A DNA stretch of 64,000 bases, taken from assembly GCA_965198945.1 (NCBI GenBank), contig CBDAQI010000004.1, positions 77,230 through 141,229 of the forward strand. Reading direction: 5' to 3'. This DNA is from Thermodesulfobacteriota bacterium (GTDB taxonomy: Bacteria; Desulfobacterota_D; UBA1144; Nemesobacterales; Mycalebacteriaceae). Positions 43,301-52,300 of the stretch are shown here, one piece after another; positions within the stretch are counted from its first letter, which is position 1; each line of letters opens with the position of its first letter. Made by a program: the position numbers.

Positions 43301-46300
43301 TTGGCGGCCATCCGCCTCGGTTTTCTTCTTATGAGACCCGAACTTGCCGTTCAGATGTCAAAGATAAGACTGCCTTATAATATCAATTCCCTTACTCAGG
43401 CCGCGGCGCGCGTTTTTTTTGAAGACCAAACGGCGTTTGAAAAAAATGTGAGAATCATAGTCGCCGAACGCGAAAAAATGTTTGATTCTCTGCGTTCCAT
43501 TGACGGAATAAAGGTTTTTCCAAGTGATGCGAATTTTTTCCTGATACGGTTTCCGGACCCCGCCGCCGCGCAAAAAGTTCACTGCGAGTTGATAAACAAA
43601 AGCATTCTTGTCCGGAATTTTCCGGAGGGAGACATTTCCTGCTGCCTCAGAGTTACGGTTGGTCTTGCCGCAGAGAACCGTGAGTTTGAAAAATGTCTGC
43701 GTGAATTTGTTTCCCGGGGTTTATGAACGACGGCGGCGCGAAAACATAAAAAGCCGCACCGCACCGAAAACAATCAGTCCGAAAGCCAGAACCTGTGCGA
43801 CGGAAAGTCCGTCTATCGGGCTCGGAGTTGTTGTTCTGATGAACTCAACGAAAAATCGCTCAATCCCGGCAAGTGTTATGTAAACGGCAAAAAGCCACCC
43901 CTCGGGCGCGGGTCTACGGCGCAGTTTCCAAAGTATTATAAAAACTCCGGTCATTGAAAGTGTTTCATATATTTGTGTCGGGTGAACTGTGTGATATACG
44001 GGCGGGTAGCCGTCGGGAAAAGCCATGGCCCAGGGCAGTGAAGACGCCGTTCCGTAATCATCACCGACGAGCAGGCAGCCGACCCTTCCTATCGCATATG
44101 CGATTGCGAGTGCGGGAGCGGTGGCGTCAAGGGTTTTCCAGACACCCGCTTTGTGTTTGCGCGCACAGTAAATTCCGGCCGCAAGTCCGCCCAGAAAGCC
44201 GCCGTAAAAAGTGAGTCCGTTCCGGGAGAAAATAAGTTCGGAGGGGTTTGCCGCCAGTTGCTCAAAAGTGAAATTTTGCAGCAGAAAAAAAAGTTTTGCA
44301 CCCGCTACCGAACAAATGACTATCCACAAAATCATGTCTTCCGCAAGTTTCGGAGGCGCGTTTTTTCTCTTCAGTTCACGGGCCGTTATGAGGTATGCGG
44401 ATAGAAATGCGAGAGCCACCATCACACCGAAAGAGTTGATTGAAAAACTCCCAACCGTTAGCAGTTCGGGATACATCAGCGTTTGTTTTCCCTGGTTTTT
44501 TCGTCCGCAGTTTTTTCCGCCCGCGTATTTGATTTTTCAAGCAGAAAAACTGAAATAAAAAAACAGACGCATAGCGCCATGTTTAAAAAGAAAAGCTGAG
44601 TGAATGTCATTTCAAAAGACATTTATATCTTTTAACCCGGTTTTTTTCAAACATGTCTTTGATTTTTGTAATAGTTTTTGTCTGACTGTAGACTTCCCCG
44701 TAATGTTGGGTTCTCCGGTTCTTGTTTTAAACAAAAACTACCTGCCCGTCTCCGTAACCAATTTAAGGCGGGCGTTCATAATGCTTTACTGTGGCGAGGC
44801 AAAAGCCGTTTCGGAGAAATATGAGACTTTTGATTTTGACAGTTGGGCAGATATTTCGGCCGCCGCTTCTGCGGGTCTGAAGGGCGACTACATACGAACG
44901 GTTACAAAAATCATAAAAGCGCCCAGGGTTATCATTCTTCTCCGTTACGGCGGTTTTTACAGAAAGCGTCCGAAATTCAACCGTTTCAACATATTTCGCA
45001 GAGACGGCGGAAAGTGCCAATACTGCGGTCGCGCTTTTCCGAAGAGCGATCTTACAATTGACCATGTAACTCCCCGTGCGCTCGGAGGCACAAGCAGATG
45101 GAACAATGTTGTTTGTTCATGCGCTTCCTGCAACCGCAGAAAAGGCGGAAGAACCCCGGAGCAGGCCGGAATGAAGCTGCTGACAAAACCGGTTGAACCC
45201 CAATGGGGCCCTTTTGCGGGAATGTATGCGCGCGCCGTACGCTACAAAGAGTGGGAACCGTTTGTGAACTTTGTTGACGCTTCGTATTGGAACGTTGAGC
45301 TTGAAGGGTGAGACCGGCCCACGCGATTTTTCTTTCTGTCTGCGTCACTTTCATAAAAGAGTAATGGCGCCTCTTTTTCTCATACAGTCCTAAAGACAGG
45401 CTCAGTAAATCGGTGAGCAATCCTTAAAACATAGCCGTCATACAATCTGAAAGGTCTTTTTTTAACAGTCTTATTAACAGGTAAAAAACGAGAAAATGTT
45501 TGTAAAATTGTTGACTTTGAAGACCGTTAATATATGTTGTGCCTCAATAATTTCGAATTTTGGAGAAAAAATGACCTTTAAAGAATTGGACAGTCTTATA
45601 AAAGAGGCCGGATACCGTGGCACAAGTGACCTCAGCGGCTCCCACATCACTATTCAAACGATAGATCAATTTGGAGAAATTTTCGCCGCCGGAATTTCAG
45701 AAGAGCTAAGAAAACAATTCTCAGACAGCCTGCCAAAATCTTCTTCCGAGGATGTTCTGCGAGAATTGGCGGATTACGTTTACGGCTCATGCTATGTAAA
45801 AGAAATTTTCCCCGTCAAAGTAAAAATGAGAAAGCCTTTATCCAGGCTTGCCGTGGAATATATAAACAAAGTTTTTCCTCTCAAAGCAAAAGCAGTTTCG
45901 GAACATAATGTGGTGATTGACAAAGACATTGTTTTTGGACCTTCGGCTTCTCCGCAAATTATCAATGCCGACACATTAACGTTTGACGGTGGTTCCATAA
46001 CAGCTGTCACTACAAGTTTAAGCATAAATGCAAATAAGTTGATCATAACAGGTAAGAGCAGTTCCAATCCTTATCATGTCGGAGTTTTTGGACGGAAAGG
46101 TTCGGACGGCGCAGACGGCAATCCCGGCAAGCATTACACTTCCCCCGCTGTGGCGGGTCATGACAGCAGTGCCCCCACACCGGGCATATGCACTGGTGCG
46201 AGTAATGGCGGCAAAGGAGATAATGGTCTTAAAGGATTTCCGGGGGAGGACGGCAAAGACGGAAAAGACGGCCAGCCCAACATGCCGGCCAATATTTCTA

Positions 46301-49300: not shown

Positions 49301-52300
49301 GAAGGGTGTTTTTCAGTTTTGACTGGGATGATGTTTGGAGAGCAAATCAAGTTCGTAATAGTTGGGTTGCAAAAAGAAGTTATAAGATTGCGGGATTTAG
49401 AGACGTTGCTGAAATTGAAAAAGTTAAAAGACATTCAGACAAAGAAATAAAAAATTGGATAGACAAACAAATGAAAGGCACATCAGTTACTTGTGTTTTG
49501 ATTGGTAGCAAAACAAACAAAAGCAAGTGGGTGAAATATGAAGTAGAGAAAAGCATTGAAAAAGGAAACGGACTTTTTGGAATACTCATTCATAACTTGA
49601 AAAACCCTGAAGGGAAAACTGATAAACAAGGGGAAAATATGCTTGAAGAGTTTAACAAAGAAGAAAATTTCGGAGCAAAAGTCAAAAAAGCTTTTGTAGG
49701 CGGAGGTGTAGGGTTGTGGCTTGCAAGACTTGTATTTCCTCAATTTACCATTCCGTTGACTTTCATGGGTGCTGTTCTCGGATTAAGCAAATCAGATGAT
49801 AGTGGTGATGACTACAAAATTTATGATTGGTTTGACGATAATGGATATGAGAACCTCGGCGACTGGATAGAGAAGTCTGCCCAGCAGGTTGGAAGATAAT
49901 GGGAGGTTAGAGATGGCACCAAAGAGGCAAGTTTTTTACAGTTTTCATTACCAACCGGATAGTTGGCGAGCCTCACAAGTTCGCAATATAGGTGTTGTTG
50001 AAGGGAATGAACCTGCTTCTGATAATGATTGGGAGAAAATCAAGAAAGGTGGTGAGAATTCGATTAAAAGATGGATAAACGAACAGATGAAATATAGGTC
50101 ATGCACTGTTGTTCTCGTTGGAACAAATACTGCAGATAGAAAATGGATTGATTACGAAATACGCAAGTCATGGAATGGTAATATGGGTGTTGTCGGCATA
50201 TACATTCATGGATTGAAAGACCAAGAAGGTCAATTATCTTTTCAGGGAAAGAATCCTTTTGATTTCATTACTTTTACATCTGGCAAAAAAATGTCTTCAA
50301 TAGTTAAGTGTTACAATCCTCAGGGATTGAACAGCAAAGAAAAATATGATTGGATTTCAAGGCATTTGTCTAATGCAATTGAAGAGGCTATTCGAATAAG
50401 GAGAGGTTATTAGTATTCAACCATGACATTATTTCTATGCCACTCTAAAGATGAAGGATCTGGCAAAGTTTTTGAGTGGGTGGAGAGTCTAATCTGTTTG
50501 CTTTTATAGGCGGCAAGTGATGAATTTTCTTTTATCTCTACGATTCTTTCTGGAACCAAAATGCAATATTTCTTGTCTATACAAAACATTCCTCTGTCAA
50601 AAGCCCAGTGATGTTTGCGGCAGGCATAGGGCAAGCCCGTTTCTAATATCATCCGTGCCAGAGCATCTTTTCGGCACAATCGGCACAATATGAGCGGCTT
50701 CAGTTTCATGAAATCTGGCTAAATCAACCAACGAGTCATTACACATGCAACATTGGTGGTCATACAGATTCAAAACAAGGTTGCGAAAATCGGCTGACCG
50801 TTTGACACTCCGCCCCTTTCTATGGCATAATTCCCTGCTTCGCGCAGGGTAGTAACAATGCAAGCAGTAATAAGAACAGGAAACAGGCAATACCTCGTCA
50901 AGCCGGGGGATGTTGTGGATATTGAGAAAATCGCCGGAAGCGCCGGTGATTCGGTGGGATTTTCCGATGTTTTGCTGGTTTCTGACGGTGAAGGTGAAGC
51001 GAAAGTCGGGGCTCCGGTTGTTGAGGGTGCGGAAGTCAAGGGCGAGATCCTGGCTCAGAAAAAAGGTACTAAAATCACCGTCTTTAAGTTCAAAAGACGC
51101 AAAGGATACAGACGAAAGGCCGGGCACCGGCAGAAATACACTTCGGTTCGTATAACCGACATCAAAGGATGAACACGGGGTAAAAAACAATGTCCACAAA
51201 AAAAGGCGGCGGAAGTTCAAAAAACGGAAGAGACTCGGCGGGAAAACGGCTCGGCGTTAAAAAATTCGGCGGACAGTCCGTCAAAGCCGGAAACATTCTT
51301 GTCAGACAAAGAGGGACAACTTTCCATGCGGGAGAAAATGTGGGAACCGGACGCGACTGGACACTTTTTGCGCTTGCGGACGGAGTTGTGAAATTCCGCA
51401 AAGGCAAAAGAAACACCGTTTCCGTCGTTGCACCTGCGGCGTAAACTGAGAGGCTCCAGCCTCAACTCTCTCAAATTATTCTGCTGACCGCCACCGTTCA
51501 TTCGGTTATACTAACCAGCCACCCACCGGACGGGCGCCATTATGACAGGAAGCGAAATAAGGGAAACTTTTCTTTCCTACTTTGAAGACAGGGGGCACAA
51601 AAGAACAAAAAGCTCTCCGCTTGTTTTCGCCCGTGACCCGACACTGCTTTTTACCAACGCGGGAATGGTACAGTTCAAGAATGTTTTTCCGGGAATTGAA
51701 AAATTCCCTTCCAAGCGAGCCGTTTCATCACAAAAATGCATGAGAGCCGGCGGCAAACATAACGATTTGGAAAATGTCGGATATACCGCCCGCCACCACA
51801 CTTTCTTTGAAATGTTAGGCAATTTCTCCTTTGGCGACTACTTTAAGGAAGATGCCGTGCGTTTTGCATGGGATTTAATGACGAACGTTTTCAAACTTCC
51901 CAAAAGCAAACTCTGGATCACCGTGCATGACAGCGACGACGAAGCGGCAGCTATCTGGGTAAAAGAGTCGGGCCTTGCCGAATCCCGTATTCTGAGGATG
52001 GGAGATGAAAGCAATTTCTGGTCAATGGGTGATACGGGGCCGTGCGGGCCGTGTTCCGAAATTCTCATAGACCAGGGTAAACAAGCCGGATGCGGGACAA
52101 AAGAGTGTGCTCCGGTCTGCGACTGTGACCGTTACCTTGAGCTGTGGAACCTTGTTTTTATGCAGTATGAAAGAGATGAGTCGGGCAAAATGACTGCTCT
52201 TCCCCACCCGAGCATAGACACCGGAATGGGTCTTGAAAGAATGACAGCCGTGATACAAAAAACGCCGAGCAACTATGAGACCGATTTGATTCGCCCGATA

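Follow-up and report, generated by a model that had tools for sequence, protein, structure and literature searches.

The window analysed here, a 64-kb stretch of DNA, comes from a genus of Ca. Dadabacteria with small genomes (~1,300 genes, about a dozen lipoproteins), six of which were studied, three of them single-contig. Absences were called from family searches with working controls (LolA, Lnt, TolB, OmpA, Transgly, YkuD and others). In genome G000, the six-frame translation was also searched with clade-built profiles for LolA, Lnt, TolB, Pal and the LolB-fold protein, giving a best E of only 0.56, and 97 multi-pass membrane proteins and about 80 exported candidates were scanned for families. 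The parts of the lgt-hnh locus are listed in Table 1.

Table 1. Features of the lgt-hnh locus, in window positions.
Feature	Position	Strand	Evidence or remark
lspA, signal peptidase II	30886..31510	+	two ORFs in this assembly; both halves match Peptidase_A8
Empty slot, mqnC/HPr	40932..41033		relatives: TPR protein and 250-aa LolB-fold lipoprotein upstream of HPr
HPr, hisD, hisC (conserved left anchor)	41034..43726	+	Pfam, synteny
lgt/hisC junction, 6-bp overlap; deleted lnt position	43721..43726		relatives: ~530-aa Lnt; empty in 6/6 of the genus; spanned by contig X1
lgt, prolipoprotein diacylglyceryl transferase, intact	43721..44476	-	PF01790, E 4e-55; in 5/5 other genus genomes
Conserved HNH gene (hnh)	44604..45311	+	HNH_5; tolB comes next in relatives
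Variable cargo, hnh to rplU; insertion hot spot	45312..50857		tolB-thpR here in relatives; GC down to 0.37 at 48-50 kb
Two glycine-rich ORFs, 444 and 420 aa	45496..48133	+	no Pfam or PADLOC family
Candidate Thoeris-like/PDC-M50 defence cassette	48153..50413		
Three ThsB-like TIR genes	48153-48821, 49297-49899, 49889-50413	+	Pfam ThsB_TIR; PADLOC for the cassette as a whole: ThsB, PDC-M50A, PDC-M50B
Membrane protein in TIR cassette	48814-49293	+	PADLOC match PDC-M50A
Probable HNH_2 remnant	50410..50800	-	PF13391, E 6e-4, slightly under cut-off
rplU, rpmA (conserved right anchor)	50858..51444	+	Pfam
Empty slot of ~470-aa membrane protein, rpmA-alaS in relatives	51445..51541		synteny; no match in six-frame G000

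The junctions in the window are real, because they are spanned by a public contig, X1, which covers positions 30900-50899 with four substitutions and one 1-base gap, and which may be the window's own source. The split in lspA is a one-base error near 31246, the extra base being missing from X1, and the gene is an intact ORF of 162-171 aa in G024, G025 and G028. As an earlier survey of this DNA had noted, lgt adjoins hisC (6/6 genus loci, gap -16 to 49 bp) and tolB follows hnh in relatives (24/24 same-order loci from 23 genomes). The survey's finding also placed the deletions at this locus, which is correct for lnt and tolB, but pal-cpoB lies by hemL in relatives and tolQRA at yet another locus, and both sets are missing from the genus. 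Its proposal that a defence island took over the tolB slot was rejected, since hnh is still followed by thpR in G025 and G026, where the cargo is located downstream of thpR. In other genus members the same hot spot holds type III RM, AbiL-like, PDC-S35 and PDC-M41 genes, and defence genes differ by member. Thoeris is recognized by ThsB together with ThsA, and no match to the ThsA effector was found beside the three ThsB matches in the window. The first glycine-rich ORF gave a weak collagen-like NCBIfam match far under cut-off, and Atlas placed it with hypothetical-protein clusters.

Lgt and LspA are kept in the genus, whereas Lnt (TIGR00546) was found in 0/6 of its genomes, compared with 111 of the 114 other genomes of the class over cut-off (113 with any match). 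Neither Lnb nor Lit was detected in the four genus genomes searched, although controls were positive. LnsAB and LhaT are further routes of N-acylation. From this gene content, the lipoproteins of the genus are predicted to be diacylated.

None of the known tethers between outer membrane and wall (OmpA/Pal, OmpM-SLH or those linked by L,D-transpeptidases) was detected, the OmpA domain, SLH and YkuD each being found in 0/6 genomes. The OmpA/Pal domain is present in 94 of the 95 other genomes of the order, and full-length TolB (TIGR02800; 0/6 in the genus) in 18/18 relatives. Lpp needs an L,D-transpeptidase; the lack of YkuD, part of the earlier case, is real but not specific to the genus, since only 10 of 18 relatives have it. 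SPOR was found in 0/3 genus genomes, TolA and CpoB were not found in G000, where alone they were checked, and one ExbB/ExbD-like pair is left in the genus. The survey had called the name TolB tentative, a doubt now largely removed: relatives encode a Tol-Pal system, with TolB_N and PD40 over Pfam cut-offs, TolQ at 224 bits (cut-off 221) and TolA at 65 (59) in G053, and CpoB at 97 bits (cut-off 90) in G089. Their Pal-like lipoproteins score 80-100 bits, under the TIGR02802 cut-off of 125, but TIGR02802 is their best match and the genes adjoin cpoB. Empty slots lie inside contigs for lnt, tolB, the LolB-fold gene, lolA, tolQRA, rlpA and the SPOR gene after argS, while the pal-cpoB site in G000 is rearranged rather than cleanly emptied.

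The survey had listed the Lol pathway among the systems kept, along with BamA/D, TamAB, Lgt and LspA; the others are indeed present, but of Lol only LolF-LolD remain. LolA was found in 0/6 genus genomes and 18/18 relatives (PF03548, 0/3 genus genomes), and within contigs its slot after ftsK is empty, the gap there measuring 4-18 bp. Against this stands a LolA_like (PF17131) protein, which occurs in G000 and G027 and in neither G025 nor G028. The LolB-fold lipoprotein gene is present at 13 of 24 relative loci and at none of the six genus loci; a model of the relatives' protein (pLDDT 89) has LolB as its best Foldseek match (E 5e-10), suggesting a LolB-like fold. The transporter, whose best PDB match is LolF (E 2e-39), is encoded in a lysS-lolF-lolD-bamA operon in all four genus loci read. 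A hydrophobic hook recruits LolA, in contrast to the polar hook of LolE (PMC13575116). In 11/11 LolA-coding relatives the LolF hook has a hydrophobic GPFG tip, whereas this LolA-docking hook is polar and Lys-rich in four of four genus members and shortened in four of four members of the other LolA-less order. Thus, of the canonical pathway, the genus has LolDF and lacks both LolA and the hydrophobic hook. A polar hook is no proof of a new route, however, since in vivo many substitutions in the hook are tolerated by E. coli. With LolA and the LolB-fold lipoprotein lost, the main reason for N-acylation is removed.

Wall synthesis is also reduced. MreB, RodA, PBP2 and amidase are lost in the genus, and class A PBP (Transgly) was found in 0/6 genomes. 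A single transpeptidase gene and a single SEDS gene remain in 6/6 (the latter split across a contig break in G024), leaving FtsW-FtsI as the only SEDS-bPBP pair, and dcw genes are under purifying selection (dN/dS 0.10-0.23, like the rsmH control). FtsZ and FtsA are kept. The lipid II pathway in G000 comprises MurA, MurC-G, MraY, Ddl, MurI and MurJ, and the dcw cluster is present in G025, G027 and G028; murE of G000 is split at an A9 run. Loss of the elongasome, class A PBP, amidase and SPOR proteins would leave little sacculus to tether.

Judged by its porin, TolC-type (three channels), autotransporter, BamA and TamA families, the outer membrane is real. BamA has POTRA domains, BamD and TamB are each present in 3/3 genomes, Skp, SurA, TamA and MlaDEF are encoded, and bamA-skp is conserved across the genus. 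LpxC was found in none of 31 class genomes, with positive controls, which raises the question of what the outer leaflet consists of; in G000, LpxA, LpxB, LpxK, Kds and Lpt gave no match save a generic ABC match for LptB, and no LptF/G was found. The exported candidates of G000 include ankyrin proteins and YadA-type adhesins, which only suggest host association, and the genus is a reduced, probably host-associated branch of an LPS-free diderm class.

The reading we favor, with a probability of roughly 0.55 for the whole, is that the genus has undergone reductive loss of the entire module linking outer-membrane lipoproteins with a full sacculus, leaving a septal wall, an LPS-free, untethered outer membrane and diacyl lipoproteins delivered without LolA, with the defence cassette as a bystander in an insertion hot spot. 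Gene content shows the loss of Lnt, LolA, the LolB-fold lipoprotein, TolQRA, TolB, Pal, CpoB, RlpA, the other SPOR protein, amidase, MreB, RodA, PBP2 and class A PBP; kept are the lipid II pathway, MurJ, FtsZ, FtsA, FtsW-FtsI, BamA, BamD, Skp, SurA, TamAB, MlaDEF, porins, TolC-type channels, Lgt, LspA and LolF-LolD. The module would have been shed gene by gene at many loci. FtsW-FtsI would make the entire wall at the septum, and cells would be coccoid, their peptidoglycan thin or ring-like. An outer membrane in an osmotically buffered niche would need no wall anchor, and only trans-envelope bridges, TamB-TamA and RND-TolC, would hold it to the inner membrane. The remaining lipoproteins would be diacylated, and LolDF would pass the outbound ones, BamD above all, along a LolA-independent route. 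A stricter form, in which one FtsW-FtsI pair builds the wall, there is no tether at all, and the LolAB-independent path inferred in E. coli is the sole route for diacyl lipoproteins leaving LolDF without LolA, LolB or Lnt, is put forward only tentatively. The survey's central claim, of a diderm with no known outer membrane-wall tether and with lipoproteins predicted to be diacylated, survived every test run.

The envelope might instead be conventional in function, with an unrecognized tether (for instance on the periplasmic side of a porin, an inverse autotransporter or a lipoprotein), N-acyltransferase or carrier as replacement. There is room for one among the family-less proteins of G000 (14 of the 97 multi-pass proteins and about 20 of the exported candidates), an exported FxLYD protein conserved in the genus is a further candidate, and in other phyla Lnb acylases and remote LolB-like proteins were recognized late (PMC11573676 and PMC13103446, respectively). 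Yet the 97 membrane proteins include no LNT_N, Lit, Lnb, MBOAT, Acyl_transf_3 or CAAX match, no wall-binding family (OmpA, SLH, SPOR or other) was found on barrels or lipoproteins among the exported candidates, and the sole LysM protein combines an NlpC/P60 domain with a membrane segment at its N terminus. That a dozen genes of linked function were lost together better fits a relaxed need, and we consider replacement unlikely. It is rather unlikely, too, that the outer membrane is free of lipoproteins, with no outward traffic, BamD and others in the inner membrane or vestigial, and LolF-LolD kept for other cargo or for their operon position. The missing LolA, LolB-fold and Lnt genes and the degenerate hook would suit this, as would the LPS-lacking diderm Terrabacteria, which, according to PMC11784454, apparently keep no lipoproteins there; but within the genus LolF and LolD match BamA in conservation (61-67% against 64% identity), and BamD, present in every genome searched for it, retains its lipobox in G000.

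A lineage caught midway in the loss of its outer membrane, passing from diderm to monoderm within the Gracilicutes, would also lack an LPS pathway, Tol-Pal, OmpA and LolA, and tether loss is a proposed first step (bioRxiv 2021.05.31.446380). Such a transition is highly improbable here given the assembly factors, porins, TolC-type channels, autotransporters and conserved bamA-skp described above, and a wall that is thinned, not thickened. Equally hard to credit is an artefact of incomplete or error-rich metagenome assemblies: G000 does have frameshift errors and gaps (coxI/II fall between contigs C1 and C12), and rpoB had no match in G026, but the same absences recur in the three single-contig genomes, the slots are empty inside contigs, X1 spans the locus, and the hook change is independent of assembly completeness.

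To our knowledge, Gracilicute diderms are regarded as needing, almost without exception, both a tethered outer membrane and delivery of lipoproteins by LolA. The genus may show the least machinery on which a double-membraned envelope can run, and offers a natural test of whether FtsW-FtsI suffices to build a cell wall. Its few genes and lipoproteins make a short candidate list for a lipoprotein carrier that works without LolAB and for whatever holds an outer membrane without Pal, OmpA, Lpp or OmpM.

The other Dadabacteria order (family f9, 0.8-1.1 Mb genomes) resembles the genus in lacking the OmpA domain (0/19), full-length TolB (0/7), LolA (0/7) and class A PBP (0/7), so that OmpA-domain loss, presented by the survey as a genus trait, is shared, and its remark that this order also lacks TolB was borne out. 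It differs in keeping Lnt (18/19), MreB (7/7), RodA (two SEDS genes in 3/3) and PBP2, and its losses are probably independent. Since it keeps the elongasome without Tol-Pal, tether loss needs no elongasome loss, and since it keeps Lnt without LolA, LolA loss does not force Lnt loss. If, as is probable, this second order reached most of the same state independently, the genes common to both lineages should include the missing parts of the LolAB-independent route.

Our literature search found no paper with this combination of losses, but single losses have precedents: Lnt loss in Wolbachia, and no known tether in Planctomycetes and Dependentiae. Unlike the genus, Wolbachia (Anaplasmataceae) keeps LolA. 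It is likewise a diderm symbiont with Lgt and LspA and no Lnt, its lipoproteins predicted to be diacylated, but it keeps Pal (PMC2755959); it also has no class A PBP, yet keeps amidase and a RodA-like protein (PMC5814848). The peptidoglycan-intermediate bacteria (Orientia, Chlamydiales, Francisella), mostly host-associated and with a reduced wall, share with the genus a full lipid II pathway, at least one SEDS protein with a class B PBP, and no class A PBP (PMC8406291 and PMC5814848). All such species in PMC5814848 keep RodA-like proteins, whereas the genus, without RodA, PBP2 or MreB, has FtsW-FtsI alone. Buchnera aphidicola, a round symbiont, is also without LPS, MreB and RodA, but its genome is gammaproteobacterial and far smaller, and, according to PMC9116674, its walled strains generally keep amidase and at least one lineage keeps PBP1B. 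In LolDF species (Francisella, Neisseria, Acinetobacter), the homodimeric LolF tolerates diacyl cargo and lnt is dispensable (PMC11784454), and LolAB-less E. coli mutants show that there is another route beyond the ABC transporter; these are laboratory deletions in cells that keep LolA or Lnt, whereas the genus is a natural lineage without Lnt, LolA and the LolB-fold partner together. Finally, Planctomycetes and Ca. Dependentiae are diderm Gracilicutes in which bioRxiv 2021.05.31.446380 reports no Lpp, Pal, OmpA or OmpM detected. Theirs is a phylum-wide state, with no close relatives that keep Tol-Pal, whereas in the genus the loss is recent and, since the sister families keep what it has lost, can be mapped gene by gene.

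Within a class sample of 120 genomes, we compared the six genomes of the genus (Ca. Dadabacteria, the sole genus of family f1) with 95 other members of its order (f2-f8) and 19 genomes of a second order (f9), whose genome sizes are 0.8-1.1 Mb. Most family tests used a panel of 31 genomes picked for completeness and spread, comprising 6 from the genus, 18 of the same order and 7 of the other order, and smaller tests used 5-17 genomes. The survey's finding described a diderm genus without Lnt, TolB, OmpA/Pal domains or L,D-transpeptidase, and most of these absences held up. Lnt was over cut-off in 111 of 114 other class genomes and in none of the six, the three exceptions being 74-88% complete, and neither Lnb nor Lit was found (0/4 each in the genus genomes tested, controls positive). 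TolB was likewise absent from all six, whereas 18/18 relatives gave full-length matches of 288-348 bits, one of them over cut-off; doubt about the name of the relatives' protein was largely removed by TolB_N and PD40, which both exceed their Pfam cut-offs. The other order is also without TolB (no full-length match in 7 genomes). The OmpA domain was found in 0/6 genus genomes versus 94/95 others of the order, but this loss is not confined to the genus, since 0/19 genomes of the other order have the domain. YkuD was indeed absent from all six genomes, but we dropped it as a genus marker, since only 10 of 18 relatives have it. SLH (0/6) and SPOR (0/3 genus genomes tested) domains were also not found, with positive controls.

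Judged from their sequences, the relatives carry a true Tol-Pal system with dispersed genes. TolQ and TolA of one relative, G053, score over NCBIfam cut-offs, and pal-like lipoprotein genes adjoin cpoB, upstream of hemL. The possibility that these OmpA domains belong to MotB was ruled out, as they lie on lipoproteins next to cpoB with Pal as the best match. In G000, the genome of the window, the ORFs upstream of hemL look, by eye, like cobalamin genes, and nothing is left in the slots of tolQRA, rlpA and the argS-linked SPOR gene. An ExbB/ExbD-like pair after lysA (G000:C13:23366-24402) is retained in the genus, G053 and the f9 genome G107 despite the loss of TolA, and no FhuA-like receptor was matched in G000.

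The Lnt and TolB deletions had both been placed at the lgt-hnh locus, and the gene order there was confirmed: lgt abuts hisC at 6/6 genus loci, all without tolB, while in 23 same-order genomes outside the genus tolB follows hnh at 24/24 loci and lnt adjoins lgt or hisC. The window, G000:C4:77230-141229, reads HPr-hisD-hisC, lgt, hnh, two glycine-rich ORFs, a TIR cassette (three ThsB-like TIR genes and one membrane protein), an HNH remnant, rplU, rpmA and alaS. A 52.8-kb public contig, X1, covers window 30900-50899 with 4 substitutions and one 1-base gap, so that the locus junctions are not misassemblies, although the window may itself derive from that run. The proposed tie between tolB loss and the defence island was not borne out. 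Cargo differs in each genus member (type III RM, AbiL-like, PDC-S35, PDC-M41), and in G025 and G026 thpR still follows hnh, with the cargo further downstream. The slot is an insertion hot spot, and the island, which need not have caused the loss, was rejected as its explanation. The f9 loci L128-L130 retain lnt without lgt as its neighbour (3/3) and have hnh directly adjoining rplU; lgt is likewise missing at locus L131 of G016.

Features of the window (positions count along the window)
Feature	Position	Strand	Remark
Exported FxLYD-domain protein	35034-36122	minus	~53% conserved in G024, G025, G027 and G028
lgt	43721-44476	minus	6-bp overlap with hisC
Two glycine-rich ORFs, no known family	45496-48133		Upstream of TIR cassette
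Slot of ~470-aa membrane protein, emptied in genus	51445-51541		Relatives have it between rpmA and alaS, with no more than weak sensor-kinase matches

The statement that the genus keeps Lol proved incomplete, as LolA and a LolB-fold lipoprotein are lost and LolF-LolD remain, within the bamA operon. LolA (PF03548) was not found in three genus genomes, with G053 positive, and a search with the G053 protein matched 18/18 relatives, 0/6 genus genomes and 0/7 of the other order; the lolA slot after ftsK is shut to 4-18 bp in G000, G025, G027 and G028. A 250-aa lipoprotein gene lies between mqnC and HPr at 13/24 relative loci, at none of the six genus loci, and nowhere in six-frame G000. DUF4292 matches 20/45 of its homologues, and its structural model (pLDDT 89) has LolB as best match (E 5e-10); the available portions of the LolB papers examined, PMC13103446 among them, do not name DUF4292. 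The hook of LolF, its LolA-docking segment, retains a GPFG tip in each of 11 relatives that encode LolA; in its place 4/4 genus members examined have a Lys-rich stretch, and in the other order 4/4 have a shortened hook (a further region missed the operon). A hydrophobic hook is linked to LolA binding (PMC13575116, in part), and the E. coli hook is permissive to substitution (bioRxiv 2023.11.08.566237, in part), so the changed hook corroborates LolA loss and does not prove a new route. A LolA_like protein (PF17131) occurs in an MMPL operon of G000 (C13:142494-147125) and G027 and is absent from G025, G028 and G107; this patchiness and setting rule it out as a conserved LolA stand-in, and the operon could possibly be a lipid exporter for an LPS-free outer membrane.

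The cell wall genes are similarly reduced. Class A PBPs were found in 0/6 genus genomes versus 18/18 relatives and MreB in 0/6 versus 25/25 others, and each genus genome has one transpeptidase (at least two elsewhere) and one SEDS gene (two in 11/11 others). Amidase_3 was found in G019 and G053 but not in G025 or G028, and AmiC, MltG and DacA had no match in G000. The dcw cluster is retained, with a dN/dS of 0.10-0.23, as are MurA, Ddl, MurI and MurJ; the SxxK and KTG motifs of FtsI are intact in 5/5, and the hydrolases left are two SLT-domain proteins, one M23 peptidase and one LysM-NlpC/P60 protein. Decay of wall genes was ruled out, since dN/dS is low and the splits of murE, tamB and lspA in G000 and of ftsI and murF in G026 look like indel errors. 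mraZ is missing at the dcw head of genus loci and present in G053 and G019 (L174, L160-L164).

An outer membrane is present in the genus, to go by its genes. BamA, BamD (with lipobox), TamA and TamB were found, as the survey had it, together with Skp, SurA, MlaDEF, porins, three TolC-type channels, and inverse and trimeric autotransporters. LpxC was absent from 31/31 panel genomes, and Lpx, Kds and Lpt genes from G000, so the class appears LPS-free, which raises the question of its outer-leaflet lipid. A PLP enzyme encoded next to a GT2 gene was rejected as a serine palmitoyltransferase on its score, which is that of an aspartate-type aminotransferase. Large YadA-head adhesins and exported ankyrin-repeat proteins (G000:C10:6321-14561; C12:139210-147939; C13:52850-55486) suggest a host-associated life. 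G107, the sole f9 genome tested, gave no TamB match and only a weak BamD match, so outer-membrane machinery may be barer still there.

Like the genus, the other order is without Tol-Pal, OmpA, LolA and class A PBP, but unlike it keeps Lnt and the elongasome. A full RpoB tree (quick method) did not resolve one versus two origins; without the other order the genus groups with f4 and f7 (SH-aLRT 99), and without the genus the other order falls outside that group (20/30 ingroup rows), which is only suggestive of separate origins. RpoB ORFs (L257-L260, L263) are 1474-1499 aa in the genus, ~100 residues longer than the 1368-1412 aa of most relatives; that of G019 is long too.

From this gene inventory we infer cell shape, wall thickness, acylation state and lipoprotein route. 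Most likely, with a probability of about 0.55, is a joint reading in which a buffered niche would have relaxed the need for elongation and repair synthases, Tol-Pal and Lol-output genes and these would have been lost together, the wall would be made only at the septum, inner-to-outer membrane bridges would hold the outer membrane, and the LolF-LolD transporter (LolDF) would handle about a dozen diacylated lipoproteins without LolA. That a substitute does the lost jobs seems unlikely. Our scans of G000 covered ~80 exported proteins, chosen among lipobox and barrel candidates and a signal-peptide list of 111 rows, and all but six of the 103 proteins with at least four predicted helices (97, the six being already identified); they left ~20 exported and 14 membrane proteins without a family, and the FxLYD protein is a candidate for this role, but no wall-binding family was found on a barrel or lipoprotein among the exported proteins and no acyltransferase family in either set. 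Atlas searches with the glycine-rich and FxLYD proteins returned hypothetical clusters only, those of the first glycine-rich ORF mostly from Pseudomonadota.

An outer membrane free of lipoproteins is slightly less probable again: the Lol output is gone, and BamD keeps its lipobox. Incipient loss of the outer membrane, set beside the many outer-membrane genes retained, is very improbable. We think as little of an artefact. G000 (1.39 Mb, 14 contigs, rated 95% complete) has real assembly gaps and many frameshifts (C12:40500-43000, C10:110935, C13:96400 and window 31246, in cysK, the LysM-NlpC gene, murE, tamB and lspA), so its apparent pseudogenes are untrustworthy, and rpoB had no match in G026. 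X1 shows the lspA split (window 31246) to be an indel error, and the splits of murE (at an A9 run), tamB and ftsI/murF look like indel errors too, these genes being intact in single-contig genomes. Given these indels, gaps and the rpoB miss, the case stands on the three single-contig genomes (G025, G027, G028), on empty slots within contigs and on the hook change.

The survey's finding was thus largely right in observation and incomplete in interpretation, having missed the Lol-output and wall losses: the genus represents a reduced-envelope diderm of a variant form that goes further than had been stated, and it is set in an unusually clean comparative frame. In the literature searched, mostly without subscription papers, we found no account of the Dadabacteria envelope (nothing among the best 15 of 329 items on sponge/symbiont genome reduction) and no natural diderm with LolDF but without LolA, LolB and Lnt; these searches covered main texts, and Dadabacteria or further single-pair genomes may appear in the supplementary genome tables of surveys on tethers and PBPs. 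Partial texts of the following sources offer comparisons. Nearly all Gracilicutes encode Lnt, and LolDF species can dispense with it (PMC11784454). No known tether was detected in Planctomycetes and Dependentiae (bioRxiv 2021.05.31.446380). Peptidoglycan-intermediate bacteria, defined by class A PBP loss (PMC8406291), retain RodA-like proteins, and Buchnera is without RodA and MreB (PMC5814848). Wolbachia is without Lnt, as is the genus, but unlike the genus it has kept Pal (PMC2755959).
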